A model generated the notes under the pieces. That model was not told the origin of the DNA and searched no databases. It worked only from the letters and a program-made list of their open reading frames with translations. Shown one piece after another: positions 39,041 to 64,000 of a stretch of 64,000 bases of DNA. The number at the start of each line of letters is the position of its first letter. Within the stretch, counting starts at the first letter, position 1. The stretch comes from Candidatus Moraniibacteriota bacterium (lineage in GTDB: Bacteria > Patescibacteriota > Minisyncoccia > Moranbacterales > GCA-2747515): the NCBI GenBank assembly GCA_027031495.1, contig JALVQA010000006.1:81535-145534 (forward strand). Reading direction: 5' to 3'. A program made the position numbers and the translations under genes.

Positions 39041-39076
39041 TTTTTTTGCTAGTAATTATTTGCTAGTAAAACAGGA

Positions 39077-42165: not shown

Positions 42166-42170
42166 AATAG

Positions 42171-42242: not shown

Positions 42243-42247
42243 TTCGT

Positions 42248-43216: not shown

Positions 43217-43387
43217 AGTTTTGCTACTTATGTTTGATTACCTTTGCTTTCTTGGCCGCTTGCTCGGCGTCCTGCGCTTGCACAACGCTCTGCGTCTCCG
43301 GCATAAAGAACGCTTTGTTTTTGATTTCCCCATCCTTCTGCGGCGTCACCGCCTTGTTCTGTGATTGTTTCTTCATAGATTTGTACT

Positions 43388-45100: not shown

Positions 45101-45148
45101 ATGGTATGCCGCTCATCCCTCCCCCGCATACGGGAGAGAGGGAGCATC

Positions 45149-45331
45149 CTACGCTTTCTTGGCGACACCTGCCTTGATATAGGCGTCCGCCTGCTTCTGT
45201 GGGAAGCCGGCAATGTCACCTGCGACATATGGTGCGGCGCCCTTGGTGAATTTCACCTTCACCACATCGCGCTTGACCTTCTTAGCGTCTGCCTGCTTCT
45301 TAGCATCTGCTTGTGTGTTACTTGCAGCCAT
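45149..45331 (-). CDS. Small K/A-rich phage protein
   Basis: 60 aa between MCP and connector genes. Confidence 0.3.
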   Translation of the reverse strand: MAASNTQADAKKQADAKKVKRDVVKVKFTKGAAPYVAGDIAGFPQKQADAYIKAGVAKKA

Positions 45332-45361
45332 AGTTTTTACTCTTAGCGAATTATGTCGTGA

Positions 45362-46447: not shown

Positions 46448-46462
46448 AGTTTTATGCGTTAA

Positions 46463-47431: not shown

Positions 47432-47493
47432 CGGGTCGCCGTGGCGAACCTGTACAGAGTCTCGTAGACTTTCACTTTGTTACTTTCAGTATA

Positions 47494-49692
47494 TCACACC
47501 TCTATTTCCGGCGCAACACTGCACTGGCAGTTGACGCTCTCGTAGATTGGCAGCGACGGGTCGCTTGGGTACATCGCGTGATGTCCACCGATGGTGAACG
47601 GCTCGTCTATCCCGACGATCTGCCCGTCCGCCTCCGCGTGTGACGCGCGTGTGTTCCGGAACACGGCCGTCCAGATGCGATGTGTCGCGCCAAGCGCTTT
47701 CATCTCTTGCCAGCGTGCAAAGTTCTGCGCGCGTCCGACCTCTGTGCGCGCGATGCGCTCGCTGCGGTAGTCTCGCGCCTCGTCAAACACACGCGCAACG
47801 CGTGCCGACAACTCATCCACCGCATCACCCTCATCAATCCCCTCCTGCAGCGCGAGCGTCAGCTCGTCGCGCGTGTGGATGTTGATCTCATTCGCGAAGC
47901 GCGGCGGGTTCTCCTCCAGGAATTGTTTGGCGGCGTCGGTCCCGAGAATGTCCACCGCCTCCTGCCTGAGAAGCCCGGCAATCGCCACGACACCGTGCTC
48001 AAAGTCTATGCCGTACTGCTCGGAGAGAATTTTCGCCAACGCGTCATTGTCACCCATCACCTCCTCTACTACGGCCGGGATAGTGGTGTCCTTGTGCGCC
48101 TTCGCGCTAAACACCTGTGCGACCTTCTCTATCACAGCACTCTGCTGCTGCGAGAAGTACGCGCGCAGTGCATCGGTGAACTGCTCCTCGCGTTTGTCCA
48201 CCGTTGCGAGATATGCCTTGCGCTCCTTCACGAGCGCCTCCGGCAGTGTTGGTTCATCCTTCGCGCTCTTCGTTGTCAGTCGCACAACTTTCTTCTCCTC
48301 CTGCTTCTTGCGCAGACGGTTCAACGCCCGACGCGCCTTGACGCGCTGTACAACATCGTGCAGTGCTTTGCGTGAATTGTGCGATCGTGCCAATATCGCA
48401 GACTTGATGCGCAGTTGCTTGCGGCTCAACCCGTCAGCAAGTTGCAGCGCCTTCGGCTGCTCACCGTCACCGACCTGCGTACCCTGCGAACGCACATAGA
48501 GAACGTCACCGCCGTCCAGCGGTGGTAGACTGTACCGTGCACGCGCCTCGTTTATCGTGAGCCACACATTGACGCCGAAGCGCGTCTCATCCAGCACCGT
48601 CTTGCGATCCTCCGTAACAGGTGACTCATAGTCTAGCCACGCAGTATCGTCAATTTGCGGCACGAGGAAAGCGTTCAACTGCGAAACGATCAGGCGCAGC
48701 ATCGGGTCCACCGTGTATTTCGCGAGCGTCTCTTCTGCAACCTTCGCGTTCGCATAGGTCGTGTCTTTGGCAAAGAACCCTTCCGGCACACCGAGAATGC
48801 TCAGGATTGCCTGCTTGCTGTTCTTGCGCGTCTCCATATATCCGGCTTCACTTGGTGACTTGCGCCCGGTCTTTCCGATTTTGACGCCACCCTCAAGAAT
48901 CGCCACTTTTCCGGCATTCGTTGGGCCGCCATAGCGCTCCTCCCATGAGTCTCGCAGGCGCTTGTATACAGCGTCAGAAAGCTCGTGTTCCGTCTCCAAC
49001 ACAACATCCGGCTCGCCGTGACGCTCCATGTAGTACTTGTTCCATATCGCGGCAGCAGCGTCCACATCCACTTCTAACGCGCTTGCGGAAAGCGAACTGT
49101 AACCGCGAATCACATCTCGCGGGTCCGGGTCGCGGATGTATACCACATCCTCCGTACTGAACCGCTCCACCTTCCCACCGGCGCGGAACTCATAGTGCGA
49201 CACGGTGCCGTCCGGCTTCTGCTTGATGCTCAACAGGTCCGGGCGCATTGGAAAGAGTCCGACAATGCGGCGACCTTTGCGAATCTTAAAAAGCGGCGCG
49301 GCGCCAAAAAGCTTCAGATATGTAACGACGAGCCCCAACATCTGCACCTTGTCCATAATCGGGTTCGGGCGCTCCAGCAGTGCGATGATTGCGTGGTCCT
49401 CCACGCGCTCCGGCGCGTCGCCTTTGAGCACATAGACATCCAGTGGTGTCGCTGACACGCGGTTAGCGATAATCTTAATGGCAAAATATACCCACCCGGC
49501 GAATGCGTTCAGCGGATCTGTTTCCGCGCTTTTTCGGCGCATAAAATATGAGCCGGTCACCGATGAGAGGAACGGGATGCCGCCGCCATATCCGATAAAT
49601 TTCAGTAGCGCGCCACGCAAGAGAGATTTGATTTTCATAGTTTCGTGATAAATACAAAAAGAGCCCTGCGCGTCCCGACATGTCAGGACCAA
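47494..49692 (-). CDS. Portal protein fused to Mu F-like/SPP1 gp7-like minor head protein domain
   Basis: 732 aa; portal-like N-terminal two thirds; C-terminal ARTEVGRAQNFARWQEM...NCQCSV characteristic of MuF-like head morphogenesis domain. Confidence 0.75.
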   Translation of the reverse strand: MVLTCRDAQGSFCIYHETMKIKSLLRGALLKFIGYGGGIPFLSSVTGSYFMRRKSAETDPLNAFAGWVYFAIKIIANRVSATPLDVYVLKGDAPERVEDHAIIALLERPNPIMDKVQMLGLVVTYLKLFGAAPLFKIRKGRRIVGLFPMRPDLLSIKQKPDGTVSHYEFRAGGKVERFSTEDVVYIRDPDPRDVIRGYSSLSASALEVDVDAAAAIWNKYYMERHGEPDVVLETEHELSDAVYKRLRDSWEERYGGPTNAGKVAILEGGVKIGKTGRKSPSEAGYMETRKNSKQAILSILGVPEGFFAKDTTYANAKVAEETLAKYTVDPMLRLIVSQLNAFLVPQIDDTAWLDYESPVTEDRKTVLDETRFGVNVWLTINEARARYSLPPLDGGDVLYVRSQGTQVGDGEQPKALQLADGLSRKQLRIKSAILARSHNSRKALHDVVQRVKARRALNRLRKKQEEKKVVRLTTKSAKDEPTLPEALVKERKAYLATVDKREEQFTDALRAYFSQQQSAVIEKVAQVFSAKAHKDTTIPAVVEEVMGDNDALAKILSEQYGIDFEHGVVAIAGLLRQEAVDILGTDAAKQFLEENPPRFANEINIHTRDELTLALQEGIDEGDAVDELSARVARVFDEARDYRSERIARTEVGRAQNFARWQEMKALGATHRIWTAVFRNTRASHAEADGQIVGIDEPFTIGGHHAMYPSDPSLPIYESVNCQCSVAPEIEV

Positions 49693-49756
49693 GCAGAGCT
49701 CGTGAGCTCATGAGGTCTGGCGGCAAGCGCTAGTCACGACTCGCCGCCACATCTCC

Positions 49757-50083
49757 TTACCTCTTTTTGTCTACCTTCACTATACCACGCTCCACAGCGT
49801 GCGGCAATATCACACCGCCCGGTGTCTTTTTCTGCGTGTGCCGGATGCGCGGCTTCGTGCCGGAGCAGAACATAAACTCCAGCAGTGCATCGTCACCGTC
49901 AATGTCTACCTTGATGCACCCGCCCATCTCGTCAACAATCTCCTGCGCTTCCTGCAGTGACTGCATAGAGATGGTGCCGGTGTCGGCGTGCTTTGCGTGA
50001 AATTCCTGCGCGATCTGCTGGATGCGTTTCGCGGCTTCCTCGCGCTGCTTTTTGGTAGCGCGCAGTGCATTTTTTCGTGTCAT
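49757..50083 (-). CDS. Phage hypothetical protein
   Basis: 108 aa between portal and TerL. Confidence 0.35.
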   Translation of the reverse strand: MTRKNALRATKKQREEAAKRIQQIAQEFHAKHADTGTISMQSLQEAQEIVDEMGGCIKVDIDGDDALLEFMFCSGTKPRIRHTQKKTPGGVILPHAVERGIVKVDKKR

Positions 50084-50295
50084 TGTTTTTTCGTTAGTGA
50101 ATGAATCATAAGGGGACGACCTTCGCTGTCGTAGACCTTGCGCGCATTCAGACCGATGCGCAATACAACAGCGTGCTCAATTGCGATGGAGACCGGTGAC
50201 CGGCAGTGCGGACAGCGTGTCTCCAGTGCCGTCGCTTCCGTTTCCTTGAATTTCGCGACCAATGCGTTGCATCGTGGACAGTTTGCAAGAATCAT
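50080..50295 (-). CDS. Small zinc-ribbon protein (CxxC...CxxC)
   Basis: CPRCNALV...CPHCRSPV. Confidence 0.4.
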   Translation of the reverse strand: MILANCPRCNALVAKFKETEATALETRCPHCRSPVSIAIEHAVVLRIGLNARKVYDSEGRPLMIHSLTKKQ

Positions 50296-50312
50296 AGTGT
50301 TTTTGCTATTTT

Positions 50313-51593
50313 TTACATCAATCTTATGCGTGGCTCAGCCGGCTGGACCCAACTCTTGCGCCCGGCGAGTGCATAGCGAATCGCATCCATTGCGTGGTTG
50401 TGCGCGTCCACCGGCGTGTTCGTTGGCTCTTTGTTACGGTCCAGCGCCCACTTGTACTCCTGCAGCTCATCCGCGATGTCGTCAGAGTCCTCTGTGTAGT
50501 ACACCTCGTGGTCGTGGATATAATCAATGCCGGTCCGGATGCTGTCATTCCCCTTCGGCGCAGCGCTAATGTCAAAGTTGTACTCCGCAATCTCCGCAAT
50601 GCTTTTCGGCTCCGATGCGTCTGCGAATATGAGACCATTCACACCGAGCTCCTCCATCCTCTTGGCGATGCGTGCGTTGGTGAGGCCCGTCTCGTAGAGC
50701 AGTTGCCGGACATAGATACGTTCGTTGTGACGCATCACTTCCACCAGCGCAGTCGGATCGTTAGAGAAGCCAAAGTCAAGTCCGTAGAACCGCTCATACT
50801 CCAGCGCCTCGTACTCAGCGACACTGATTGTCTGCCAGTCTGTGAACACGCGGCCGCGTGCACCCTCCGACACAAGCCCCTTGATCATAGAGTAGTAGTG
50901 GCTCGGGTTGCGCGTCTTGTAGCGCTCAAAGTTGTCAATAGTCTTGTCTGCGATGTTCTGGCGATTGCTCTCGTACGTTCCGTGGATGTAGATCGTGTCG
51001 CGCTTCTCGCTGTCCTTCAGGTCCGCCTTGTAGAAGCCATCAACACCGGACTTCGTAAGGTTGAACCAGCGTCTGATAATCCAGTGCTTGCGGTGCGGTG
51101 GGTTCAGAAGCAAGACGATCGTCACATCACCCTTCACTGTACGCAGCGAGTCGTCCAGTTGGATGAAGTCCTCCTCCGCGACCTCGTCCGCCTCTTCTAT
51201 GATCACACAATTGAAGTTCGCCAACGACTTGAGTTTGCTCTTTTGATCATTTGTACTGCGCCGGAAACCCTTCCCAACAATCGTGTTGCCACCGCACTGC
51301 ATCTTCATCTGATTTTCCGTCACGCTCACGCGCGCGGCAATCTCATCATCCAATTCATCGCGCCGGTCCACAGCTTCCTGCCAGATACTATGTCGGACAT
51401 CATTCAGCACAAACCGCATAATCGCGCAGCGGAAGTATGTTGCCGAGAGCAGATTGATGAGCGCATATTGACTGGCTGCGTGCGATCGCCCGGCGGACCG
51501 TCCGCCCATCATGATGATGTACCGCGGCCGCTTGCCGGATGCAGCATTCCCGACAAAGAGTGGTTTGTAGATTTTGTTCACATCAAACATCAC
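50313..51593 (-). CDS. terL: Terminase large subunit
   Basis: Walker A-like IIMMGGRSAGRSHAAS, Walker B-like FNCVIIEEADE, RNaseH-like nuclease region ADASEPKSI...DAHNHAMDAIRYAL. Confidence 0.85.
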   Translation of the reverse strand: MMFDVNKIYKPLFVGNAASGKRPRYIIMMGGRSAGRSHAASQYALINLLSATYFRCAIMRFVLNDVRHSIWQEAVDRRDELDDEIAARVSVTENQMKMQCGGNTIVGKGFRRSTNDQKSKLKSLANFNCVIIEEADEVAEEDFIQLDDSLRTVKGDVTIVLLLNPPHRKHWIIRRWFNLTKSGVDGFYKADLKDSEKRDTIYIHGTYESNRQNIADKTIDNFERYKTRNPSHYYSMIKGLVSEGARGRVFTDWQTISVAEYEALEYERFYGLDFGFSNDPTALVEVMRHNERIYVRQLLYETGLTNARIAKRMEELGVNGLIFADASEPKSIAEIAEYNFDISAAPKGNDSIRTGIDYIHDHEVYYTEDSDDIADELQEYKWALDRNKEPTNTPVDAHNHAMDAIRYALAGRKSWVQPAEPRIRLM

Positions 51594-52069
51594 GAGTAAT
51601 CCTTGAATGTTACCTGAATACCATTGTTGATATTGACCGATACACTAGGCGTATCACTCTTGCGTCCCTCCAGTCCGTGTAATTCTCCCAATGCTTTGTG
51701 ATATTGTCTGCGTACTCTGTAGTCATCATAGTAATCAACAACTTTCCCGTCCCAAACAACCGGAGACTTCGCAGAAAGACCATCTCTGAGCTTTTCCACA
51801 TACTTATCTATTCCAAGATCATAGATTGCGAGAATAGCCGAAATGTTAACTTTTGTTAACTGACGGGCTCCGAGAACACGAGCGCTGCGCTCTGTTACTT
51901 CCGGGTGAAGTTTCTTATATGCTTTTGTTGCGTTCATCCCATTTTTCATCCACTCAGCGATAAAAGCAGCAAGAGCAGCGTCCCCACCGCACTCCTCCAA
52001 GACAGCAATTTTATCCGCCTGACAACGAATGACTTTGCGTTTCTTTGTTGTTTTCTTGTTTTTTGCCAT
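51590..52069 (-). CDS. terS: Terminase small subunit (P27-like)
   Basis: GMNATKAYKKLHP motif; overlaps terL start by 4 nt. Confidence 0.7.
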   Translation of the reverse strand: MAKNKKTTKKRKVIRCQADKIAVLEECGGDAALAAFIAEWMKNGMNATKAYKKLHPEVTERSARVLGARQLTKVNISAILAIYDLGIDKYVEKLRDGLSAKSPVVWDGKVVDYYDDYRVRRQYHKALGELHGLEGRKSDTPSVSVNINNGIQVTFKDYS

Positions 52070-52259
52070 TGTTAGTCAGTGTATCCAATACTCTTATCCA
52101 CTGTTTTTCAGTGTTTGTAATTTCTCCTTTCCTTCTTATACCTCATCCGTGCCTGCTTGTTGAATAATTTGCGCGTCCACTTATGTCGCCCGCTCCGACC
52201 GCTCCGGCACCTACTGCAGCCACATCCGGTGTGTATTCTCTGTTGTATTTTGCTCAAGA

Positions 52260-52529
52260 TCATAGATTGTATTCTTTGCCTTTATAAAAAGCAATTTTTG
52301 TATGGTTCTCGCTTTCACAGAAAACGCCAAAAAACTTGCAAAAAATGTTTTGTTTCCAATTTTTGCAAATAAACACATCAACGATGTTTTCTTCACCTGT
52401 CTTAATGTCAAAGCGACTATCAACAATGCGTGATGTATCCCATAAGTCATCAACCACATGCACCCTATCAGCTCTTTTTCTTTTGTGCTCCAGCAGATTG
52501 CCGCATTTTGTGCAATATAGTTTTGTCAT
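52260..52529 (-). CDS. Phage hypothetical small protein (CxxC)
   Basis: 89 aa. Confidence 0.3.
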   Translation of the reverse strand: MTKLYCTKCGNLLEHKRKRADRVHVVDDLWDTSRIVDSRFDIKTGEENIVDVFICKNWKQNIFCKFFGVFCESENHTKIAFYKGKEYNL

Positions 52530-52822
52530 ATTTTTTCAATTAAATTCTTATACAACTCCTTCAATACCTCTTCGCATTGGTCCTCCGGCGAACGTGTAAG
52601 ATCAAAGGTGAACAACTCTATTGGGATATCGCTGTAGTTGTCACATACATAGAATTCACCCAAGCCGTTCATCTCTATAATCTTTCCGCATTTCTCAGAA
52701 TCAAATTTTGACTGCATCATCAACAAAACTTCTGATAGAGACAGAGGTTTGTTATTTCTGTCCATCACCTCATTTCTCATTGTGCGGAGCTGTTTTGTTA
52801 ATTCTTTTACATCGTTATTCAT
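52526..52822 (-). CDS. Phage hypothetical protein
   Basis: 98 aa acidic. Confidence 0.3.
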   Translation of the reverse strand: MNNDVKELTKQLRTMRNEVMDRNNKPLSLSEVLLMMQSKFDSEKCGKIIEMNGLGEFYVCDNYSDIPIELFTFDLTRSPEDQCEEVLKELYKNLIEKI

Positions 52823-52930
52823 ATGTTTGCTTACTGAAAAATATCACAAATAATACTCCACAACATCAACAAAGATGATACAAGCCACAGAATGACGCCG
52901 ATTAAAAGTAATGTATATTTATCCATAGGT

Positions 52931-53350
52931 TTACTTCTCCATTAAATTTTCAACATCAACATACCGCACGCGTTTCTCATTTGTGCGACCTGATGTTCTG
53001 TACCCAAACACCAGTACGCGCACCTTGCCACTTTTCGTTGGCTTGCCGAGTACTACGCACGGCATCGTGTATTCGCGACAGTTTCCACCCTGACATTGAC
53101 GACAGCGCACGACATGTGTTGCATCTTCAGCTGTGGCATTCCTTAGATACGTAGTCTCTATCGGTGTTGTTTCCACAACAACGTGTCCGTCAGACAGTAT
53201 TTTCTTTTTTGCCTCCTCGTATGTGTCCCACGTGCCGATTGTGGATACACGACCCTCTATCTCCAATCCTGCTGATACATACCCGTGAGCCGAGAATGTG
53301 CCTCCGGCATTTTTGAATATTACGTAGTATAGCTTTTCCTTTTTGTTCAT
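52931..53350 (-). CDS. Phage hypothetical protein (Cys-cluster CRQCQGGNC)
   Basis: 139 aa. Confidence 0.35.
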   Translation of the reverse strand: MNKKEKLYYVIFKNAGGTFSAHGYVSAGLEIEGRVSTIGTWDTYEEAKKKILSDGHVVVETTPIETTYLRNATAEDATHVVRCRQCQGGNCREYTMPCVVLGKPTKSGKVRVLVFGYRTSGRTNEKRVRYVDVENLMEK

Positions 53351-53356
53351 AGTTTT

Positions 53357-53839
53357 TCACTTTACGATTTTATAGATCACATCCTCATGCTCTCGCAACC
53401 ACGTCGCTTCCAGCAGCTTGCGCTTCAGTTTCCACACCGCTGTCTCATATCCCTTCACCTCCACGAGCTCCTTGCGGCCGTCGGCGTATGTCACGAGGAA
53501 GTCCAGGACATGCGTGCAAATTTTCTGCCCATTCACGACGAGAGGGATGCGGACCTGGCGCTGGACGTCTATGACACACCGTTTCGGATCCGAGGCCCGG
53601 CGGAGCATATCTAACTCCGCCGCAACCTCTGCCTCCCGGCGTGAGTCATATGTCACGCCGTTGTACACGGTCCGCCGTGCATTGTACTTGCTCCGGCGGC
53701 GACCACCTCTGCGACTTGTGACGATGATAGTCATACTAGAATGGCACTTTACTTGATTTCGCTTTTTGTAGATTGTAGAGAAGGTCATAGTTATCCGCGT
53801 CCTGCTGTGAGATCCACATGATGTAGTCCTCTGGCACAT
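53357..53839 (-). CDS. DUF1064 phage protein
   Basis: SKYNARRTVYNGVTYDSRREAEVAAELDML..Q..IPL...DFLVTYADGRKELVEVKG matches DUF1064 pattern. Confidence 0.6.
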   Translation of the reverse strand: MCQRTTSCGSHSRTRITMTFSTIYKKRNQVKCHSSMTIIVTSRRGGRRRSKYNARRTVYNGVTYDSRREAEVAAELDMLRRASDPKRCVIDVQRQVRIPLVVNGQKICTHVLDFLVTYADGRKELVEVKGYETAVWKLKRKLLEATWLREHEDVIYKIVK

Positions 53840-54464
53840 CCTCCAGTCGCTCGCCTTTGTATTTTCCGAACGGCATCCGACGAATGACAGCCGGCTCCTG
53901 CGTAATTTTGATCATCTCATCAATCACCGGTGCGACCTCCTCGTGCTGTCCGCGCATCATATTCACGAGCGCGCCGAATACTTCACGCAATACGATCGTG
54001 TCGTAGAGCGCGTCGTGCGCAGCCGTGCCTTCCGGTACTTCTACATCGTAGAGTCCGAGCGCATAGCGCAAATACTGCAGTCCGTAACTTTGCCACTTCT
54101 CATTCTCATCAATCGCGCGCGCAACCTTCATCGTGCAGATCTGCTGCTTCGCAGGAATCACCACGCCGTGATTCGCGAGCACTGCCGCGTCAAACGCGAT
54201 ATTGTGCGCCGCAAACACCGCGCCTTCAGAGATGAGTGCACGCACCGTCTCTATGGATTGCGACGCGTCAAATGACTGCAACTTCTCCACCTTCATCGGC
54301 GTGATGTGATGCACCGCCATTGCCTCAACGGTAATTGGCGTGTCCGGTTTGAAGTACTCGTTCAGAATCACGTGTGTCTCTCCGACGACAGAGATTTGTA
54401 CGATCTCCGCGACTTTCGTATCGCTCGCGGTCGTCTCGGTGTCAAAAAATACTACTTTCTTCAT
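53736..54464 (-). CDS. DnaQ-like (DEDD) 3'-5' exonuclease; start set to MKKVVFFDTETT
   Basis: Exo I FFDTETT, Exo II/III segments (AHNIAFDAAVL, DALYDTIVLREVF). Confidence 0.8.
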   Translation of the reverse strand: MKKVVFFDTETTASDTKVAEIVQISVVGETHVILNEYFKPDTPITVEAMAVHHITPMKVEKLQSFDASQSIETVRALISEGAVFAAHNIAFDAAVLANHGVVIPAKQQICTMKVARAIDENEKWQSYGLQYLRYALGLYDVEVPEGTAAHDALYDTIVLREVFGALVNMMRGQHEEVAPVIDEMIKITQEPAVIRRMPFGKYKGERLEDVPEDYIMWISQQDADNYDLLYNLQKAKSSKVPF

Positions 54465-54474
54465 AGGTTTGGAT

Positions 54475-54789
54475 TTAGTTCGTGAGTGAATTAACGCGCG
54501 CCGCCTCGTGCTCCTTCGCGCGCTTGCGGCGCAGTCGCAACTGCCGGAGTGCATCGTATAGGATCTTGTCACGATTGTAATTCGGGATCTTGTCCTCGCG
54601 GAACACTTGGTGCTTGTGCCCATGCACATCCACATAGCGATAGTATCCGTGCTCCACGCAGTACCGGTCAAATGTTCTGTCGCCAAGCATAGACTCAAAC
54701 ATCCGCACCTTGTGGATACCCTCTTTCGTGCTCAGTAGTCCGATCGGCGACGCATCGGTTTGTCTTTGTGTTTTGTGGAATCCTTGCAT
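54475..54789 (-). CDS. Phage hypothetical basic protein
   Basis: 104 aa between replication protein and exonuclease. Confidence 0.35.
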   Translation of the reverse strand: MQGFHKTQRQTDASPIGLLSTKEGIHKVRMFESMLGDRTFDRYCVEHGYYRYVDVHGHKHQVFREDKIPNYNRDKILYDALRQLRLRRKRAKEHEAARVNSLTN

Positions 54790-54793
54790 ATGA

Positions 54794-55636
54794 TTATTTC
54801 TTTTTGGAATTTAATGCGAATTTCACGACAGTCGCGAGCGAATACTCTGTGATGTACCTCGCGTGAACAATGCCGTCTACCGCTCTCGCGAGCTGATCGT
54901 CGGTGAAGCCGGTCCGCACAATCTCGCTCGCGACTTTCAGATTCGGCTTCAGCCACAACTGCCACTGCGCTGCTGTGCGCAGGTCTGGCGCATGACCGTA
55001 TGTGATAAGCTCCGTCAGAAACTTCGCGACGACGCGGATGTGTTCCTGATCAGAATCGGCGAGCCAATCACGAAATGCAGTTGCATCCATCTGCTCGTGA
55101 CGTGCGCACATTTGGCGATTACGCATCGGCTTACCAGAACAATAATCAAATGCGCAAACGGGAGGGCGCGACGCATCGCGTTGCGCAACCCTTCTTTGTG
55201 TATCCTTCTTATGTGCATCCTTCCAGTCCACCTCGTGTACCCGGCTTTTGTCGTCAGATGGACCCGGGTCGGTACGTGAGGTGGACTCGGCTCGGGGTTC
55301 ATCTGGTGTACCCGGCTCACGCTTCCAGACACTCACGTCCAGGAGTGTATACACGTTGTTTTTTTGCCGCCGCGTGCGCTCGTCACGCTCGCGTGTGATC
55401 GCGATAATATTATGCGCCGCCAGCTCTTTCAGCGCCTTGATTGCCGTCGTGCGGCTCATTCCCTTAGCGAGTCGTTCAATGCTCGGCCAGGACTTCTGAC
55501 CGCGTCCTGCGTGACGGCACAGCGCCATATAGACGCGGTCAGAATAGACACTCAAAATATCCTGGTATTCGTCCACGTAGACGTCATCCACGCGGAACAT
55601 CCGTCGGGATCTAGCGTCGCGAATGAGAATCTTCAT
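54794..55636 (-). CDS. Phage replication protein with N-terminal winged-HTH (replisome organiser/DnaD-like)
   Basis: LSVYSDRVYMALCRHAGRGQKSWPSIERLAKGMSRTTAIKALKELAAHNIIAI. Confidence 0.5.
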   Translation of the reverse strand: MKILIRDARSRRMFRVDDVYVDEYQDILSVYSDRVYMALCRHAGRGQKSWPSIERLAKGMSRTTAIKALKELAAHNIIAITRERDERTRRQKNNVYTLLDVSVWKREPGTPDEPRAESTSRTDPGPSDDKSRVHEVDWKDAHKKDTQRRVAQRDASRPPVCAFDYCSGKPMRNRQMCARHEQMDATAFRDWLADSDQEHIRVVAKFLTELITYGHAPDLRTAAQWQLWLKPNLKVASEIVRTGFTDDQLARAVDGIVHARYITEYSLATVVKFALNSKKK

Positions 55637-55808
55637 AGCGATAATTCTTAATGTTGTGTTTTTTCAGATCGTCACAGAATTTTTTACTTTCTGAGCGCCA
55701 CTTTTCTTCATAGCGCATATCCTCCGCGTACTCGTACGCAACCGAGAATATAAGAGCAAGGAGCGCAGAGCCAATGATAAATAGGGTCATAATTTTACTG
55801 GTTATCAT
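55611..55808 (-). CDS. Small single-TM phage protein
   Basis: 65 aa, LFIIGSALLALIFSVAY. Confidence 0.3.
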   Translation of the reverse strand: MITSKIMTLFIIGSALLALIFSVAYEYAEDMRYEEKWRSESKKFCDDLKKHNIKNYRYEDSHSRR

Positions 55809-56742
55809 TTACTACAGGGATACAGTCACACTTCGCACCTTTGTGCGATGCACACAGGGCCGTGTGCTGCATCTGCTCCTTTGGACTTTCATCCGGTACC
55901 GACTCCTGCTGTTCGTTCTGTGCCGGACCTTGCGCCGGAGCTGCAGGTGGAGTAGCTGGCGCATTTGCCGCCTCTTTCGCGCGCTTGCGGCGGATGCGCT
56001 CCAGGTCCTGATACACCTTCCGCAGCACATTGATATTCGCCGACGCCAGCGGCATGCCAATCTGCGACTCTATCACACCCTGTGTTGTTCCGAGCTCATT
56101 CATGAGAGAATAGAGACGTTCAAGCGCTTCTTTTGTGACCTTCGGTTGCGTCACTTGGGCGTTTCCGACAGTCTCCGGTGTTGCGTCTGTGTCCTCGTCA
56201 CCGGTCATGATGCCAAATGCGTTACAGAATGCATATCGCTTCGCGAATGTCAAAGCCGCCGCAAACTTTTGTGGGCCACTCATGTATGCCTTCGGGTCAA
56301 TCGGGACACGGAATGACGTCTCCTCACTATGTCCGCCTTCGTGCGTTACGATGACAGTCGCCGTCACACTCGTGTCATCCTGTTGCGTTTTGATTGTGTA
56401 TGAGAGACCATTGCGTGCGATATATTCGCGCACCTGCTCAACGATTGCATCAATAGATGCGTACTTGTATCTCACGGTACGACGGTCTTTCTCCAAGACC
56501 TCTTTTGTTTTGCGAATTGTCGGCAATTCAGATTGACATTTTGCCATAGCGGCAATAAATGCCTTCTTTGCCTCCCTTTGCTCGTAGTCTTTTTGGAGCT
56601 CAAACAGTCGCTCCAAAGTTTCTACGTCAACCTTCTTCTCTATCGCTTGAGCGATGATATTTAGAGTTGTTTGTGGTTGAATTCCCACATCCCTCTCCTC
56701 TTTTGTCGCATCTTGTGCGACTATCTCTTGAGTCGTACTCAT
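55795..56742 (-). CDS. ERF-family single-strand annealing protein
   Basis: KFAAALTFAKRYAFCNAFGIMTGDEDTD ERF signature; Q/P-rich C-terminus. Confidence 0.8.
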   Translation of the reverse strand: MSTTQEIVAQDATKEERDVGIQPQTTLNIIAQAIEKKVDVETLERLFELQKDYEQREAKKAFIAAMAKCQSELPTIRKTKEVLEKDRRTVRYKYASIDAIVEQVREYIARNGLSYTIKTQQDDTSVTATVIVTHEGGHSEETSFRVPIDPKAYMSGPQKFAAALTFAKRYAFCNAFGIMTGDEDTDATPETVGNAQVTQPKVTKEALERLYSLMNELGTTQGVIESQIGMPLASANINVLRKVYQDLERIRRKRAKEAANAPATPPAAPAQGPAQNEQQESVPDESPKEQMQHTALCASHKGAKCDCIPVVNDNQ

Positions 56743-56807
56743 AGTTTTGTTGTCCGATTGCCGTCGCCGCTAGTCACGAGCGACAGCGGCAATCGGAGAC
56801 TAGCTAA

Positions 56808-57293
56808 TTACTCCACCGCGCTGATAATTCTCGCACATGTCCACGGCCGCCATCCAAAGCGATCGTAGATTTTGCGCGCATACGCGATGTTTTGACGCGC
56901 GTCCAACAGTTTCTGCGCTGTCAGTCCCGCGTACTTCACCCGACCCGGTAAGAGTCGGATTTGGAACACTCCATACGAGGAGTATGCCGTGTGCGTGTCT
57001 CCCACACGCGACGGATCCAGGCGACTTTCGCAGTGTGCAATGCGCACTGCCGTGTCCGGGTCCTCCGGGAATGTCTCCCGGATGAGACGCTCAATCGCAT
57101 CTCGGTCAAGTTGTCTTTCGTCATCACATACCACATCAATGAGTCCGCACGGGTCCGGTGCCGTGTATTCTGCTTCCGGCACCTCTGCCGCGACCGCGAC
57201 GTCAGTGTGCAGGGTGATGACCTCACGCGCATCTGTATTCAGCGCGTTTGCTGCTGTAAAAATGACAGCAGCGGAAATGAGAATATATCTCAT
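56808..57293 (-). CDS. Secreted lytic transglycosylase (SLT domain), endolysin candidate
   Basis: Signal peptide MRYILISAAVIFTAANA; VRIAHCESRLDPSRVGDTHTAYSSYGVFQI SLT catalytic-Glu motif. Confidence 0.8.
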   Translation of the reverse strand: MRYILISAAVIFTAANALNTDAREVITLHTDVAVAAEVPEAEYTAPDPCGLIDVVCDDERQLDRDAIERLIRETFPEDPDTAVRIAHCESRLDPSRVGDTHTAYSSYGVFQIRLLPGRVKYAGLTAQKLLDARQNIAYARKIYDRFGWRPWTCARIISAVE

Positions 57294-57575
57294 ATCTGAG
57301 CATTTACAGCGGATACGCGTCCGCGTCAGCGCTCACCCTAGAAAATAAAAAAACTGCCGTTTGGCAGTATTGTTGTTGTTATTTATACAGAAAGGTCGGA
57401 CAACTCAAATTGTGCGACATAATATAAATATCAAAACAGCACAATTTCAGAAGGATAAGAACGTATTGTTCCTCTATTTATTTTTTTGCAAGAGAAAACT
57501 TTTTTACAATTTCTTGATAGATCCACTTTCATTCATTACGCCACACAATCAAAAAGTTTGTGTGTCCCTTGTTTC

Positions 57576-58176
57576 GTTTCTACTCCTCTCTTTTAAAGGA
57601 TGTTTCTAAAACATAAAAATATGATACAAAAGCGAAAGGGGGTGAGTTTCTACTCCTCTCTTTTAAAGGATGTTTCTAAAACCGCACCGTGACGAAGTCA
57701 CGGAGTGCGCTCTCCGTTTCTACTCCTCTCTTTTAAAGGATGTTTCTAAAACTCAAACTCCGCAACGCGCTCATCGTGTGTGTCTTGTTTCTACTCCTCT
57801 CTTTTAAAGGATGTTTCTAAAACCTGACGCCTCCACCTATGACGCGCGCGCGCTCGGTTTCTACTCCTCTCTTTTAAAGGATGTTTCTAAAACAAACGGA
57901 CGAAAAATACGGAAATTTCTCATAATGTTTCTACTCCTCTCTTTTAAAGGATGTTTCTAAAACATGCGGTTCGTGAAGGACTACTACACGAATTCTGGTT
58001 TCTACTCCTCTCTTTTAAAGGATGTTTCTAAAACTTTTTGTGCGAGGTATGAAGTTACACATGTACTAGTTTCTACTCCTCTCTTTTAAAGGATGTTTCT
58101 AAAACAGGTGTTACGTAAGCAGTTGCGCCGAGAAATTGAGTTTCTACTCCTCTCTTTTAAAGGATGTTTCTAAAAC
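57576..58176 (-). CRISPR. CRISPR array, 9 identical 37-nt repeats GTTTCTACTCCTCTCTTTTAAAGGATGTTTCTAAAAC (plus strand), 8 spacers of 33-35 nt. Inferred to be transcribed on the minus strand from the cas2-proximal side
   Basis: Repeats at 57576, 57646, 57716, 57787, 57857, 57927, 57998, 58069, 58140; 5-nt partial repeat GTTTC at 57571-57575 at the prophage-proximal (trailer) end. Confidence 0.95.
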
Positions 58177-58345
58177 CGCAAGATATGGCGTACTTAAGGC
58201 AAAAACGCTGTTTTCATTGTAAAGCATTTTCGCGTATTTTTGTGTAAAATCCCTTTTTTGAGCCATTTCTTGTGTGCAAACCTTGTAGCAGATCATTTTC
58301 ACAATTACTGCCTTTTCCAAAGGTTTTGCGCGATTTATGAATATG

Positions 58346-58500
58346 AGAAAGAAAAACTGCTTGCAGTATGCACACCGTAAGCAGTTTTTCACATCCTTTG
58401 AAAGAGAGGCGCTTTATGCGCCATCATTCCCCGTTTTTAGTAGCGGAGAATGAGCACAAAGGGTCGAAACAAAATGGAATGACCCCCTGTATCTTCAGTA
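58346..58500 (-). ncRNA. Candidate tracrRNA: anti-repeat (58384-58412) immediately followed on the minus strand by hairpin ACTGCTT/AAGCAGT (58356-58385) and T-tract; upstream hairpins GCGC-TTTAT-GCGC and GGGTC..GACCC
   Basis: Inverted degenerate repeat copy complementary to repeat nt 1-28 (GTTTT and ACATCCTTT-N-AAAGAGAGG), 3' terminator; boundaries approximate. Confidence 0.4.
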
Positions 58501-58511
58501 TATAACGTCTT

Positions 58512-58829
58512 CTAAAAAATCGCAATATGCGGTTCATCATAAACGCGTGACGTTGTTCCGTAGCGGCGGATACGCTTCTCAATTGATTGTGGAATCGGAA
58601 TAATGATCAATGCTTCGTCTTTTTTGTTTTTTACGAGAAATTTACTGTGCTGCAGACGTGCCATAAATTCACGTTTCCGTGCCGGTGTGAGAAAAAATTC
58701 AAAAATTGAATATTGTGTACGCACACCGAATTCTTCAAGGATTTTAACAAGACGTCGTCGCCGACGATCATCTGACACATCAAAAGCAACAAAAAATCTT
58801 TCTCTTTGCGCACTCATACGCGCTTCCAT
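58512..58829 (-). CDS. cas2: Cas2
   Basis: 105 aa; ERFFVAFDVSDDRRRRRLVKILEEFGVRTQYSIFEF Cas2 N-terminal pattern. Confidence 0.85.
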   Translation of the reverse strand: MEARMSAQRERFFVAFDVSDDRRRRRLVKILEEFGVRTQYSIFEFFLTPARKREFMARLQHSKFLVKNKKDEALIIIPIPQSIEKRIRRYGTTSRVYDEPHIAIF

Positions 58830-59812
58830 TCAAATGGCTTAAAGGTATCGCGATCACCAATGAGAATCTGTGCAAGTTGACGCACATCACGCTCCATGAG
58901 CGCTACAAGTGTGCGGTTTTCCGCAAAGTGATCGTAGCGAATAAACCGTGACCACTTTGGAAAAAACGTTCCGTATCCGTGTCGTGAGAGCGAAACGACA
59001 CCACCATCATCTGTTGTAAAATCTTTCTGTGTAAATTCTCTACGATTGACGCTACGCAACACAAAATATTCAATTGGTCCACGATAAATTTCCAAGAAGT
59101 CACTTGCAAGCGCGGCATGGCCGTATTTTTGATCATGGAGAAAGCCAACATATGGATCAAGACCAACGATCATAATATGTGTAACGAGTTCCGCGTGAGC
59201 AAGTGTATAGCAAAAACTTAAAAGCGCATTTAACGGATCGGTTGCCGGATGCTTTATGCGTCCGGGAAATACAAAGTCCGCATTATTTTTAACAAGTGAC
59301 GCATCTCGCCATATGCGAAAGTACTGACGTGCTGCAGTACCTTCCATGCCACGTATAGTATCAAGTGATAAATTTTGAGATACATTATCCGGCAATGTAT
59401 TAAGACGTTGCGTTGCACGCATCTTTTTTAATACACGATTTTGATTGATAATCTTACCACGCACAAATGTATATGCCATTTCTCGCCGCTTTTCTTTGTC
59501 ATCGTGCCACTTAAATTGCGCATGACGCAGAAAAACATTTTTTGTGTAATCATAGAGCACGGAAGCGACAAAACGGCCTTTACCATCTATAAAGTGAATT
59601 GGCACGTGATTTGTACGTGCCAATGATAACACTTTATTTGTGAGTGTTACATCACCGAAAATTACAATATCGCGCGTTGAAAGCGCTGGAAATTTTTCAC
59701 GTATATCACCAGCTTTTGTGCGAATGGCAAAATTTTGTCCACTTACACTGAGTGTGTCATCAAAACGTGCGCGATAATAGACCGTTGATTTCCCTTCCGT
59801 CAATAACGTCAT
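58814..59812 (-). CDS. cas1: Cas1
   Basis: NALLSFCYTLAHAEL and GLDPYVGFLHD hallmark Cas1 motifs; 332 aa. Confidence 0.9.
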   Translation of the reverse strand: MTLLTEGKSTVYYRARFDDTLSVSGQNFAIRTKAGDIREKFPALSTRDIVIFGDVTLTNKVLSLARTNHVPIHFIDGKGRFVASVLYDYTKNVFLRHAQFKWHDDKEKRREMAYTFVRGKIINQNRVLKKMRATQRLNTLPDNVSQNLSLDTIRGMEGTAARQYFRIWRDASLVKNNADFVFPGRIKHPATDPLNALLSFCYTLAHAELVTHIMIVGLDPYVGFLHDQKYGHAALASDFLEIYRGPIEYFVLRSVNRREFTQKDFTTDDGGVVSLSRHGYGTFFPKWSRFIRYDHFAENRTLVALMERDVRQLAQILIGDRDTFKPFEWKRV

Positions 59813-59856: not shown

Positions 59857-60453
59857 CTATAAATAACACAAGTCACGGAAACAACATCCGTCACATCTTG
59901 CATCACGGTGTTGCGGAAAATCATGTGGGTCAAGCAAGTCTTTTTGTAAACGTTTGTAGACAGCATCAGCAAGTACTATTGCTTCTTTTTGCTCATCATC
60001 GCCAAGCGTGTATCGCTTTCGCTGGCGATCGCCGGTAAAGAAAATTTCACCATACGTAAGATGTGATGATGAAAACATTTCACGCAGACACAGTGCTTGC
60101 AGGGCGAGCTGTTGGCGATGTGCAGGATTTGTACGCTTTTTACCACGCTTAAATTCAACCGGCACAATTACATTGTGCGGATAGAATTCTACAACATCCA
60201 CTACACCACTGATACCGTACTGTCGCGAGTAAATACGCAATGATGATTGTACGCGTAGAGCATTGCGATGACGTGTATATGGTTTATCCACCACGCGATG
60301 CGCCGCACGACCATCTTGGATATATGTATTTTCATCTCGCACACGTGGTGCGTCCGTCAGGAGATAGTAGGTGCTGCGCGGGCAATATGCATACTCAGCA
60401 ATGAACGATAGCGGAATAAGTGGTCGGTCAGTCTGTGGTGCTTTCTGTGACAT
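59857..60453 (-). CDS. cas4: Cas4 (RecB-like nuclease with Fe-S Cys cluster)
   Basis: N-terminal YAYCPRSTYY and C-terminal CDGCCFRDLC; overlaps effector stop by 26 nt. Confidence 0.85.
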   Translation of the reverse strand: MSQKAPQTDRPLIPLSFIAEYAYCPRSTYYLLTDAPRVRDENTYIQDGRAAHRVVDKPYTRHRNALRVQSSLRIYSRQYGISGVVDVVEFYPHNVIVPVEFKRGKKRTNPAHRQQLALQALCLREMFSSSHLTYGEIFFTGDRQRKRYTLGDDEQKEAIVLADAVYKRLQKDLLDPHDFPQHRDARCDGCCFRDLCYL

Positions 60454-63400
60454 GGCGTTTGGCGAACTGTGGTGATTTCAGCATAAAGAGTTTTAGTGTG
60501 GAGAGAATGCCCTTTTCCGTACATGCGACAAGCTCTTCCTCTGTTGCAACTAACTTGAAGTAGTACTTTAGTGCGATGTTTTGTGCAGCTTGTTCGTCGG
60601 CATCGCATGATGCGCCACAGTACTGACAGTGAAATTGCGCTTTTTGTCCACGACCATAATTCTCTTCATTTTCTGTACGCTGTGCCAAATGAATTGCTGC
60701 GAGAATCTCACGAAGTGTATATGTGTCATCACTAAGATTGCAACGTACATGCGCGTCAGTACCATCACTAAATGTTAGATGTAGTGCGTTGTTAGTAACT
60801 ATGATTGACTGATTGTTGTTATTCTCTCTAAAATATCGCTCAACTTCATATGTTGTACAGTATCCACAAGCACGACAGGTTTGCGAGGTTTTTGCCGCAC
60901 CGATGACAGCGCCAATCTGTGCATACTTTACACCCCAGATATGTGCGCGCACCGCAGCATCTGCTTCATTACTCGTACCACTGATAATATCTGCTGTTTT
61001 GAGTGTCTTGTAGAGTTTCGCAATCCGCTGTCCCCCACTCTCAAAGCCGTCCACAGAGTCTTCGTAAATCGGAATCGCATTGTACTTCAGTGCCAACGCG
61101 TGGATTTGATTGCGCACCGTACCGGCGGCCAGTTCGCGGATTTTTGCCAGGTGCGTTGTCGGGCGTGTGAAGAGTCCGGCGCTCTGCGTGTCGCGCCATG
61201 ATGCCGCTTCTGCGCGCATCTGTTCCAAATACGGCACTTCTATGAAACTGCTTTCCACAAACTGTTCTGTGCGCGGATCAAAGACGGCGTAGCCAAAGCC
61301 ATATTCGCCAAGGTCGATGCCCAGGAGCATTTGCTCGCGGCGATACTGTTTTTGATTTTTTCCATCGGCGTTGCGGAGGCAGATATTCGCACCTTCCAGA
61401 CACCGCGTCTCCTCCACAACTTCTCCATGGCGGTCACCATCACCTTTGGCGATGGAAAACGGCAGTGCCCAGTAGAGTGTTTGTTTACCGGGAATGATTT
61501 GCACAGCGCCATCTGTATCACGATGAACGTTTTGAACTTGTTCGTAGATGATTGATCCGCCCTGGATGCTCTCTACCAGTTGCTCCGTGCGATCACCCCA
61601 CAAAAAGCGCTCCAAGAATTGCTTTTGCACGCGGGAGGTTTCCAGTGGGAGGCGGTAGTAGTAATATCCGCCAATCGTCCCGTTAACAGATGCACGCGAA
61701 ACATGTTTTGGCTTAAAAACAGATTTCTTTTGTGATTTTTCAAAGAAAAGTCCGCTATTTACCTGTGACAATCCTTCTATCGGTAGTTTTGTACACAGAA
61801 TCATTGCCCAGCGATGTGGCAATTCACCCAATACACGCGTTAATGCGCGTGCATCGCTTGCTGATGTGGTCTTCAGTCTTTGCCAAATGTGCGTTGCGAT
61901 TTCTTGCGGCTCGCTTGTCGTGTCAATATCCTGTGTGCGCAAGATATTTTGCGCTTCCGTGGAGAGTTGTTTTTGTTGTGCAAAACGCTTCTTGAGGCGC
62001 TTTTGCGCACGCCGGTAGCGCCGGCGTTGCGGTGCAGTCATTTGCCGCAAATCATCATCAGATTTTTCTGTGAAAGACATTTCGCCCCATGACAATGGAA
62101 TGTACTCAAGAATACTTTGCTCACCGTTTGTAACTTGCAAAACGACACGGTCAATATAGGATGTGCGTGACAATAGCGAGAGTTTTCCGCGGATTTCAGT
62201 GCCGATTGCAGCGGCGACAAATCGTTGGAAGTGTGTGCGCGGCATATCATCACTACGCACTGTACCATTTTGCGGATTACTGTACAGCAAATTTGCAAGT
62301 TTTCGTTCACGCAATATACGCCACTGTGGCCGCTCGGATGGTAGATGAATATTTTTTGGCAACCAACGCAACTGCAATCCCCAATATATTTTCAGTAATT
62401 CCCCACCATCAATATTGATTGGTTTTTGTGGTTGGTTGAGATAAAAGAGATCTTTGATTATTCGCTTATCTGTGAGTTGATTTAGTTTAAATGTCACACC
62501 AAAATCATGTAAAAACGTTTTTGGGTCGTATAAAAGATTTTCGCGCAGTGGCATCGGCGTATAGTGAAAGCGATGGTATGGTGTCACAAGAAAACGCAAA
62601 AAACGGCGATCTTTGGTGTGCCACCACTTCTTGAGATCATCACTCTTTTCGTGATTATTTATGGCGTCCCAATCAATATATCGCTCCAAAAATGCCCATA
62701 CCGGTGCGCCGTCACGCATACGCAGAGCGAGATCCTTCAATCGTTCCAGTGTTTTGAGTGCGTGGGCACGACCGTTTTTGCGATATTCTTGACCAAACCA
62801 TTCAGTGCGCAAATGCTCACGATCTTCATTGGATAGTAAGTTACGTTGATGTGCTGTAGTAATGAGATCTTGGCCGGCAAGAACAAGGTCTACTAATTCC
62901 TCTGCCGCATTCTCAATTATTTTTGCCGGATCACGTTGTGCCTGTTTGATAAACCGTGGGTAGCGCTCCAGCGCGCTTGGAATCATGGCTTTCTTCCAAA
63001 ATCCGATAATGTTTTGGTCGGTGTCGCGTGTTGATTCTTTTGCCTCACTTTTTTTCTTTTTCCGATCAACTATTGCATCAAACACATCACCAAAAAGTTC
63101 TTTCTCATCCGTATTGTTATGTATGGGAACACCTTCATTGTTCCACTTTGCTAAAAACTCGCGAAATTCCTGCAACACGTCAGTATAGTCGTCCAAAAGT
63201 TTGCCAAGATTTTTGCTTCGTTTTTGCAACGCTTCAGCAAGACGTGGTTGTAACTCGCGTAATAATTCAAAGTTCATTACTTGTTCTTGCGGAAATAGTC
63301 TTCTGTACGCCGTTTTAGCAATTGTATCAAAGATTGCGCGATGCGTCCTGGCGTTTTTCCGGGTATCACCTTCAGTATTCTCCACAAGATGTGCTTCGTA

Positions 63401-64000
63401 ATCATTGAGGCGGTTTTCAAAGTTGGACAACCATGACTGCAATCGTCCGCCAACAAGTGTACGGTAATCTGCCCAATTTATACGAAGAAATTCCACATCC
63501 TTTGCAACAGGAATTTTAGTAGCATACTCATGAACACGTTCGGCTAAACGTCTCAAATAGTGTGGATTCTGCGCGAAAAATGCCGGGTTTCCACGCGCTA
63601 TAAGAGATGTCGCATCTTCTACCGATGCGCGAAAAGTTTCTAGTGCATCACCCCAAAGATTGCTTAGTGCATTTTGATTATCTGCAACGCCAGCAAGACT
63701 TTGAATTGTTCGCATGCCGCTCGTTTGGTGCATTGCCGGCAACAGATGTTCAAAATAAGCAGTGTAGATATCAATTGGCTGTACGCATCGCGTGGATAAA
63801 AGCTCTTCACTCATTGGGAGAATAATGAACGTGTTTTTATCTTGTTTGACAGCAATGGGATTTGTTATACCGAATATTTTTTGCAACCCCTCGCCATCAA
63901 CAACATTGTGTTTGCGGGCATATGCAACAAATGCATCATTGATCTGTTTGATTATCGGATAGTCTCCTATATTATCTTTCGTAACTCTGTCCTCTGTAAA
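60428..64000 (-). CDS. cas12: Large Cas12-family (type V) effector, N-terminus beyond window (>1190 aa); RuvC-I GIDLGEYGFGYAVFD, RuvC-II IPIYEDSVDGFESG, zinc finger CRACGYC...CQYCGASC, RuvC-III DADEQAAQNIALK
   Basis: Split RuvC in C-terminal third with Zn ribbon between RuvC-II and III (TnpB/Cas12 architecture), no HNH; frame continues open from TTG at 63886 to window end. Confidence 0.8.
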   Translation of the reverse strand, partial: FTEDRVTKDNIGDYPIIKQINDAFVAYARKHNVVDGEGLQKIFGITNPIAVKQDKNTFIILPMSEELLSTRCVQPIDIYTAYFEHLLPAMHQTSGMRTIQSLAGVADNQNALSNLWGDALETFRASVEDATSLIARGNPAFFAQNPHYLRRLAERVHEYATKIPVAKDVEFLRINWADYRTLVGGRLQSWLSNFENRLNDYEAHLVENTEGDTRKNARTHRAIFDTIAKTAYRRLFPQEQVMNFELLRELQPRLAEALQKRSKNLGKLLDDYTDVLQEFREFLAKWNNEGVPIHNNTDEKELFGDVFDAIVDRKKKKSEAKESTRDTDQNIIGFWKKAMIPSALERYPRFIKQAQRDPAKIIENAAEELVDLVLAGQDLITTAHQRNLLSNEDREHLRTEWFGQEYRKNGRAHALKTLERLKDLALRMRDGAPVWAFLERYIDWDAINNHEKSDDLKKWWHTKDRRFLRFLVTPYHRFHYTPMPLRENLLYDPKTFLHDFGVTFKLNQLTDKRIIKDLFYLNQPQKPINIDGGELLKIYWGLQLRWLPKNIHLPSERPQWRILRERKLANLLYSNPQNGTVRSDDMPRTHFQRFVAAAIGTEIRGKLSLLSRTSYIDRVVLQVTNGEQSILEYIPLSWGEMSFTEKSDDDLRQMTAPQRRRYRRAQKRLKKRFAQQKQLSTEAQNILRTQDIDTTSEPQEIATHIWQRLKTTSASDARALTRVLGELPHRWAMILCTKLPIEGLSQVNSGLFFEKSQKKSVFKPKHVSRASVNGTIGGYYYYRLPLETSRVQKQFLERFLWGDRTEQLVESIQGGSIIYEQVQNVHRDTDGAVQIIPGKQTLYWALPFSIAKGDGDRHGEVVEETRCLEGANICLRNADGKNQKQYRREQMLLGIDLGEYGFGYAVFDPRTEQFVESSFIEVPYLEQMRAEAASWRDTQSAGLFTRPTTHLAKIRELAAGTVRNQIHALALKYNAIPIYEDSVDGFESGGQRIAKLYKTLKTADIISGTSNEADAAVRAHIWGVKYAQIGAVIGAAKTSQTCRACGYCTTYEVERYFRENNNNQSIIVTNNALHLTFSDGTDAHVRCNLSDDTYTLREILAAIHLAQRTENEENYGRGQKAQFHCQYCGASCDADEQAAQNIALKYYFKLVATEEELVACTEKGILSTLKLFMLKSPQFAKRHVTESTTD

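Follow-up and report, generated by a model that had tools for sequence, protein, structure and literature searches.

The V-D loci, which carry Cas12d (CasY), have been described with cas1 as their only adaptation gene, repeats of approximately 26 nt, spacers of 17-19 nt and a scoutRNA characterised by only a short complementarity to the repeat. In KbCas12d the gene for a helper RNA precedes the array and has the same direction, and the PAM reported for CasY is 5' TA/TG. The gene cas1 is also the sole associate of the V-C loci, and the crRNA repeat of Cas12c1 pairs with three separate segments of the tracrRNA, with the final 4 nt of the repeat taking part in one of these contacts. The V-E (Cas12e/CasX) and V-B (Cas12b) loci contain cas4-cas1-cas2 together with a tracrRNA. 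In CasX arrays the repeats are 37 nt and the spacers 33-34 nt long, and CRISPR systems are rare in CPR bacteria.

The DNA analysed here is a single stretch of 64,000 nt, referred to below as the window, which contains a prophage followed by a CRISPR array and a set of cas genes (Table 1). The gene content, the related loci and the arrangement of the array make it very likely that the array belongs to a type V Cas12d/CasY-like CRISPR system and is read from the minus strand, with its leader on the cas2 side.

Table 1. Coordinates of the features of the CRISPR locus and of the neighbouring prophage within the window.
Feature	Position	Strand	Remarks
Prophage	30201..57445	-	approximately 51.6% GC, compared with 43.6% in the host part of the window
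Prophage integrase	30362-31309
Protospacer in prophage	43237-43270	+	5' flank TTTG at 43233-43236; matched by spacer 7 of related locus L015, 31/34
GTTTC (GAAAC in crRNA sense)	57571..57575	-	tandem copy of the 3' end of the repeat
CRISPR array	57576..58176	-	9 identical 37-nt repeats and 8 spacers
Hairpin-forming spacer (spacer 2)	57683..57715	-	fold of -14.0 kcal/mol
Leader-proximal spacer (spacer 8)	58106..58139	-	very probably the newest, judged from polarity
Leader	58177..58345	-	36.7% GC; contains TTTGC 58280->58276 and TACAAT 58221->58216
tracrRNA-like gene, predicted	58346..58490	-	between cas2 and leader
P1, 5' hairpin	58490->58456	-	conserved loop ATTCCATTTTGTTTC
P2 hairpin	58452->58425	-
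P3 hairpin	58422->58408	-
Anti-repeat CCTCTCTTTCAAAGGATGT	58409->58391	-	19 nt
Terminator stem	58384->58357	-	followed by T-run 58356->58345
Promoter-like site TTGCGA-17-TATACT	58497..58525	-	inside the 3' end of cas2
cas2	58512..58817	-	profile matches
cas1	58814..59812	-	profile matches
cas4	59857..60453	-	profile matches
Cas12d/CasY-like effector	60428..64000	-	full protein 1346 aa; first 156 codons lie past the window end

Effector and adaptation genes

The effector was compared with protein family models and gave its highest score, 366 bits, with the NCBIfam Cas12d/CasY model NF033951, which has a cutoff of 250. All 11 family members matched this model, with scores of 320-366 bits, while the canonical Cas12d proteins that were sampled scored 564-776 bits with full-length coverage. 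The second-best model was that of Cas12c, at approximately 100 bits and below its cutoff of 250, followed by a weak match of 39 bits to Cas12e that covered the RuvC part only and a match to the Cas12f1-like TNB domain. Among the Pfam and NCBIfam matches of the effector there was no Cas9 or HNH family. The closest solved structures were Cas12c2 and Cas12c1, the likeness being confined to the RuvC region, as was the likeness to canonical Cas12d. The RuvC residues D1052, E1136 and D1291 and two CxxC pairs are invariant in the 11 sequences.

A word-indexed search of 5.8 billion proteins returned only 11 homologues of the effector, and phmmer against 1.84 billion representative proteins gave approximately 15-20 clusters of full-length relatives with scores of 457-2001 bits and lengths of 1257-1475 aa. 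Below these the scores fell sharply to RuvC-only likeness, and the sampled members of this lower-scoring group were canonical Cas12d. Judged by its sequence, the effector is a member of a rare, divergent Cas12d/CasY clade that is distinct from canonical Cas12d.

The window contains cas4-cas1-cas2, as do 10 of 12 relatives, the contigs of the remaining two being truncated. In one relative (L005, 14753-15354) the cas4 match is in two pieces, which may reflect a frameshift or a fault in the assembly. When the exact Cas1 and Cas2 proteins were looked up, the only result was an identical contig, which ends inside the first repeat. The relatives originate from MAGs labelled Candidatus Peribacteria or Gracilibacteria, with a few labels that are obviously wrong, and on this basis the host is probably a CPR bacterium, of the Peregrinibacteria type. 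The effector gene contains no in-frame TGA, indicating the standard genetic code. A separate observation concerns the 16S rRNA gene of the window (5276-6863), where the match extends over 1588 nt compared with 1533 nt for the model; the additional length points to an insertion such as is often present in the rRNA genes of CPR bacteria.

Anatomy of the array

The repeat of the array is GTTTCTACTCCTCTCTTTTAAAGGATGTTTCTAAAAC on the plus strand and GTTTTAGAAACATCCTTTAAAAGAGAGGAGTAGAAAC in the crRNA/cas sense, which is that of the minus strand. Exact copies start at 57576, 57646, 57716, 57787, 57857, 57927, 57998, 58069 and 58140, and the eight spacers between them are all unique, with lengths in order of 33, 33, 34, 33, 33, 34, 34 and 34 nt and GC contents of 30% to 73%. 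The original prediction had described nine identical repeats, as was found, and spacers of 33-35 nt, a range that measurement reduces to 33-34 nt. Identical and regular repeats, unique spacers and a cas2 gene 336 nt away identify the element as a CRISPR array. The geometry is that of the family, in which repeats are 37 nt in all arrays and 136 of 137 spacers are 29-36 nt long (mode 33), the other being 40 nt. Duplicated spacers were seen in two related arrays (spacers 6 and 8 of L015, spacers 11 and 12 of L011).

Spacer 2, which had been described as nearly palindromic, as if derived from a terminator, does form a hairpin of 7 bp plus 4 bp, with no T-run. Its fold is the most stable among the 137 family spacers, with a z-score of -1.67, and an equal stability was reached by 19 of 200 dinucleotide-preserving shuffles.

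Spacer targets and the neighbouring prophage

The prophage contains genes for an integrase, tape measure, tail, major head, portal, terminase and Erf. The final ORF stops at 57293, and an inverted-repeat block that has a counterpart at the left end continues to approximately 57445; the prophage is therefore approximately 130-280 bp from the array, according to the boundary chosen. The prophage of the original prediction is real, the 160 bp assigned to the gap being dependent on where the prophage is taken to end. The two ends carry imperfect inverted repeats of approximately 60 nt (30201-30260 and 57385-57445) with a perfect core of 16 nt, TTTATATTATGTCGCA, at 30215-30230 and its reverse complement at 57413-57428, and may serve as arm-type sites for the integrase or as operators. 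A search for an att direct repeat at the prophage ends gave none that was convincing, the best being of 10 nt and at chance level.

The eight window spacers were scanned without gaps against the masked window, where the best matches of 20-23 of 33-34 nt were equal to those of shuffled spacers. A blastn-short search of the same spacers against all fetched loci and an extra 10 kb of the contig found the array itself only. Self-targeting of the prophage, which had been raised as bearing on whether the system is active, is thus excluded for the window: no spacer among the eight matches it, and lysogeny and an active system are therefore compatible, with no conflict to explain.

The window spacers, concatenated, gave nothing credible against INPHARED phages and PLSDB plasmids. 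Exact 20-mers of six of the spacers gave a single match in IMG/VR, in UViG_3300036980_000286 (L029), where positions 5580-5599 are identical to 20 nt of the core of spacer 3. The match does not extend beyond these 20 nt (22/34 overall) and is at the level expected by chance, to which it is attributed, leaving no credible protospacer for the window spacers in the viral and plasmid collections searched. The same viral sequence holds a 47-nt stretch with 87% identity to prophage positions 47223-47269, and its likeness to the window is probably due to chance or to a conserved gene motif.

A match to the prophage was obtained from the array of a related locus, L015 (JGI contig Ga0256832_1022653). 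Spacer 7 of this array agrees with the window prophage at 31 of 34 positions, with mismatches at spacer positions 12, 28 and 30, compared with a maximum of 24 for 129 shuffled spacers. The protospacer falls within an ORF of 50 aa on the minus strand (43224-43376), upstream of the tail gene of the prophage. The 5' flank of the protospacer in the cas sense is TTTG, while the flank on the other side, when read in the opposite sense, is not rich in T. The TTTG flank, from the single protospacer obtained, fits the 5' TA/TG PAM of CasY. A probe built from this protospacer found nothing in the other viral searches, and protospacers were absent from the IMG/VR capsid relatives (43-56% aa identity) and from the two closest capsid relatives (61-66%). 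The array of a related lineage thus targets the window prophage, while the window's own array spares it.

It could be argued that the prophage resides alongside the array because the system is switched off or decaying. The array is short, with 8 spacers, none of which yielded a protospacer in the collections searched; however, targets from CPR phages are expected to be missing from public collections, and with no spacer against the prophage inactivity is not needed for coexistence. The repeats are all identical, intact ORFs are present for cas4, cas1, cas2 and the effector, and the catalytic residues are conserved, making a decaying system improbable.

Array polarity

The polarity of the array is in itself a routine matter and, as far as the sequence goes, appears settled. 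Transcription is very probably from the minus strand, with the leader beside cas2, the trailer on the prophage side and spacer 8 the most recently acquired. This is the polarity of the original prediction, although it is supported by about ten related loci and not by the two clues on which it had been based.

The comparison set comprised ten related loci in which an array is accompanied by adaptation genes. In nine of the ten the array is found downstream of cas4-cas1-cas2 with the same direction, and the shared direction of array and cas2 is kept also where adaptation module and effector are divergently arranged (L008, L010, L012). The one exception is the most distant relative, L014 (26% identity), in which the array is inverted and lies between cas2 and the effector, so that a leader next to cas2 is not an absolute rule.

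The repeats of the family, read in the cas sense, have in common a 5' GTyTrAA and a 3' [A/G]TAGAAAC. The nine positions at the 3' end are the most conserved, at 1.45 bits compared with 0.67 for the middle, and between the window and L002 the 3' 28 nt of the repeat are conserved while the 5' 9 nt have diverged. Decay of the terminal repeat is confined to the 3' end of the array in the cas sense, where it was seen in four arrays: only the first 20 nt of the last repeat are left in L009, truncated repeats of 17-19 nt stand one spacer past the last full repeat in L008 and L011, and the last repeat of L014 has 6 mismatches. The first repeat on the leader side is perfect in every array. In L014 the sense of the repeat and the decayed end agree with each other despite the inversion. 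The window array has no degenerate terminal repeat, and its polarity therefore rests on the relatives. The sequence between cas2 and the first repeat is common to L002 and L015 where the readouts were compared, and the two have no leader-side spacers in common among those visible, both contigs ending inside the array; this pattern is consistent with acquisition at the leader end. The strand is also constrained by the helper RNA described below, since pairing of repeat and helper RNA requires that both are encoded on the same DNA strand, and the promoter and terminator of the helper gene would then fix the strand of the array. With the 5' flank of the L015 protospacer, there are thus five independent lines in agreement: repeat sense, terminal decay, helper RNA, protospacer flank and the comparison of L002 with L015.

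The block taken as the leader is AT-rich relative to the host part of the window, as had been noted. The first of the two original clues, a minus-strand TACAAT within it, is present (ATTGTA on the plus strand at 58216-58221) and is the sole -10-like hexamer in the leader, but it has no discriminating value. TACAAT occurs 40 times in the window where 40.8 are expected, the leader copy has no -35 element at 16-18 nt in the promoter scan, and the equivalent position in L002, a 75%-identical relative, is TGTAAG. A second copy, on the plus strand at 57505-57510, is directed into the array from the prophage side, making the hexamer uninformative for polarity, and it was rejected as promoter evidence. 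The second clue was a partial repeat, GTTTC, at the prophage-proximal end. These five nucleotides are present and abut the first plus-strand repeat, although as a tandem copy of the repeat end and not as a partial repeat one spacer away. The decayed repeats of the relatives keep the opposite end of the repeat and stand one spacer away, and GTTTC was therefore rejected as a mark of the trailer and dropped as polarity evidence.

The leader is poorly conserved across the family outside a single motif, TTTGC, which all eight family leaders (L002, L004, L007-L011 and the window, where it is at -104) have unchanged at -102 to -105 relative to the first repeat. The integration complex may dock at this motif, or the motif may be part of a promoter.

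The opposite polarity, with transcription of the plus strand from the prophage side and 57613-57645 as the newest spacer, would make use of the TACAAT at 57505-57510, which is preceded by TTGCAA; the two hexamers are only 14 nt apart, however, and were not called by the promoter scan. The nine identical repeats leave the trailer unmarked in the window alone, and an inverted array does exist in L014. The sense and decayed end of the L014 array follow the same rule as in the other relatives, and this rule makes the window array minus-sense. The TAGAAAC end of the repeat, the decay in four relatives, the strand of the helper RNA and the TTTG flank are all opposed to the reversed orientation, which is accordingly very unlikely.

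A predicted tracrRNA-like RNA

The interval between cas2 and the leader contains a predicted small RNA gene, the parts of which are listed in Table 1. An anti-repeat of 17-22 nt was found 233-266 nt upstream of the first repeat and on the same strand in all nine contigs with this arrangement, representing eight distinct loci (window, L002, L015, L004, L007, L008, L009, L010 and L011). The order of elements in these genes is a sigma-70-like promoter, a 5' hairpin, a variable hairpin, the anti-repeat and a GC-rich hairpin with a T-run on the strand of the cas sense. The promoter equivalent to that of the window is TTGCAA-17-TATAAT in L002, and TTGAC[TA] -35 boxes are found at the helper gene in five relatives. 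The terminator that follows the window anti-repeat appears bidirectional, with an A-run upstream. The 5' hairpin has the same fold in all eight loci, around the loop TTTAmATTTTGTTTC. The helper RNA matched no family in Rfam, and RNAalifold gave no consensus for the full-length alignment because the variable parts misalign.

The duplexes between repeat and RNA had a mean energy of -33.3 kcal/mol for cognate pairs compared with -18.8 +/- 5.2 kcal/mol for non-cognate pairs, the window duplex of 19 nt having -30.8 kcal/mol. A compensatory change is seen between the window (GAGAGG:CCTCTC) and L002 (GAGAGA:TCTCTC). A second, shorter duplex also co-varies, as GTCGT:ACGAC, GTCAT:ATGAC, GTTAT:ATAAC and GTTCTT:AAGAAC. 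The loop of the 5' hairpin contains GUUU[C/U], complementary to the terminal GAAAC of the repeat, in six of the eight loci and not in L008 and L010. Two relatives differ: in L012 the anti-repeat follows closely after the effector gene, on the other strand from the array (about 6936-6953, plus strand), and in L014, where the array is inverted, no anti-repeat of at least 12 nt was found.

A separate gene with a co-varying anti-repeat, a promoter and a terminator would place this RNA in the tracrRNA functional class, its expression being predicted. The tracr candidate of the original prediction is therefore real in substance, the system to which it belongs being of the type V Cas12d/CasY-like kind and not type II. 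A type II (Cas9) locus with a classical tracrRNA would account for an anti-repeat beside the array and for a minus-strand repeat beginning with GTTTTAGA, a start that resembles many type II-A repeats, but its probability is negligible given an effector that matches Cas12d/CasY (366 bits), Cas12c, Cas12e and the Cas12f1-like TNB domain with no Cas9/HNH, has Cas12c2 and Cas12c1 as its nearest solved structures, and is accompanied by a small RNA with the anti-repeat at its 3' end, before the terminator, as in type V tracrRNAs.

Proposed mechanism and significance

The Cas12d/CasY-like locus may be outlined as follows, where the anatomy, the conservation and co-variation across the family and the lack of self-targeting are observed, and transcription, RNA processing, the order of acquisition and cleavage are inferred. 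On the minus strand the layout is effector, cas4, cas1, cas2, the predicted tracrRNA-like gene, a leader of approximately 170 nt and the array. The pre-crRNA would be transcribed from this strand with its start in the leader. Each crRNA would contain a repeat-derived part, with the handle ...GUAGAAAC, 5' of the spacer, and this part would pair with the tracrRNA-like RNA through the 19-nt anti-repeat, while the loop GUUUC probably also pairs with the terminal GAAAC of the repeat. By analogy with Cas12c and Cas12d, the complex would cut DNA beside a 5' T-rich (TG/TA) PAM. New spacers would enter at the cas2-proximal repeat, making 58106-58139 the youngest spacer and 57613-57645 the oldest, and an active system could coexist with lysogeny, as none of the eight spacers is aimed at the resident prophage.

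The array itself is ordinary, and the interest of the locus lies in its Cas12d-like context and in the match between strains at the prophage. Descriptions of CasY/Cas12d depict a minimal system that has cas1 as its only adaptation gene and very short spacers, while the sister clade described here keeps a full adaptation module, spacers of ordinary length and a long anti-repeat. The clade bears on the origin of the scoutRNA and of the short-spacer habit of V-D, and offers a new dual-RNA Cas12 scaffold for which guide design is predictable. For few CPR prophages is there, as for that of the window, direct CRISPR evidence of encounters between a related lineage and such a phage.

Comparison with known systems

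The locus resembles V-D in an effector that scores above the Cas12d equivalog cutoff with an intact RuvC triad, albeit at about half the score of canonical members, and in a host that is likely to be a CPR bacterium from the MAG labels of the relatives. As with KbCas12d, the helper RNA is encoded upstream of the array and in the same direction, and the 5' TG flank at one protospacer can be set beside the TA/TG PAM of CasY. One obvious difference is that the clade contains cas4-cas1-cas2, while V-D has cas1 only. The 37-nt repeats and spacers of approximately 33 nt are also longer than those of V-D (approximately 26 nt and 17-19 nt), the anti-repeat of 17-22 nt contrasts with the short complementarity of the V-D scoutRNA, and the scores on the Cas12d model are well below the canonical range. 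On the curated model the effector would take the name Cas12d/CasY, but membership of V-D proper is doubtful.

The V-C systems provide the second-best model and the closest solved structures. The long duplex, the co-varying duplex of approximately 5 bp and the possible GAAAC:GUUUC loop contact together give a multipartite pairing like that of Cas12c1, although the predicted loop contact is missing in L008 and L010. The Cas12c score remains below its cutoff, and the adaptation module is cas4-cas1-cas2 instead of cas1 only. This module and a tracrRNA-type RNA are features of the V-E and V-B loci, and the repeat and spacer lengths given for CasX arrays are also those of the window; the match to the Cas12e model is weak and limited to RuvC. 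In its working the locus would be comparable to the dual-RNA type V systems Cas12c and Cas12d. We tentatively consider the possibility that it represents an undescribed branch of type V at the subtype level. Such a branch may combine a Cas12d-related effector of approximately 1250-1475 aa with a full cas4-cas1-cas2 module, 37-nt repeats, spacers of approximately 33 nt and a helper RNA, in which case the TTTGC leader motif at approximately -103 may dock the integration complex. The helper RNA may then unite a scoutRNA-like hairpin loop with a long multipartite anti-repeat, placing the branch as a possible intermediate between tracrRNA- and scoutRNA-dependent systems.
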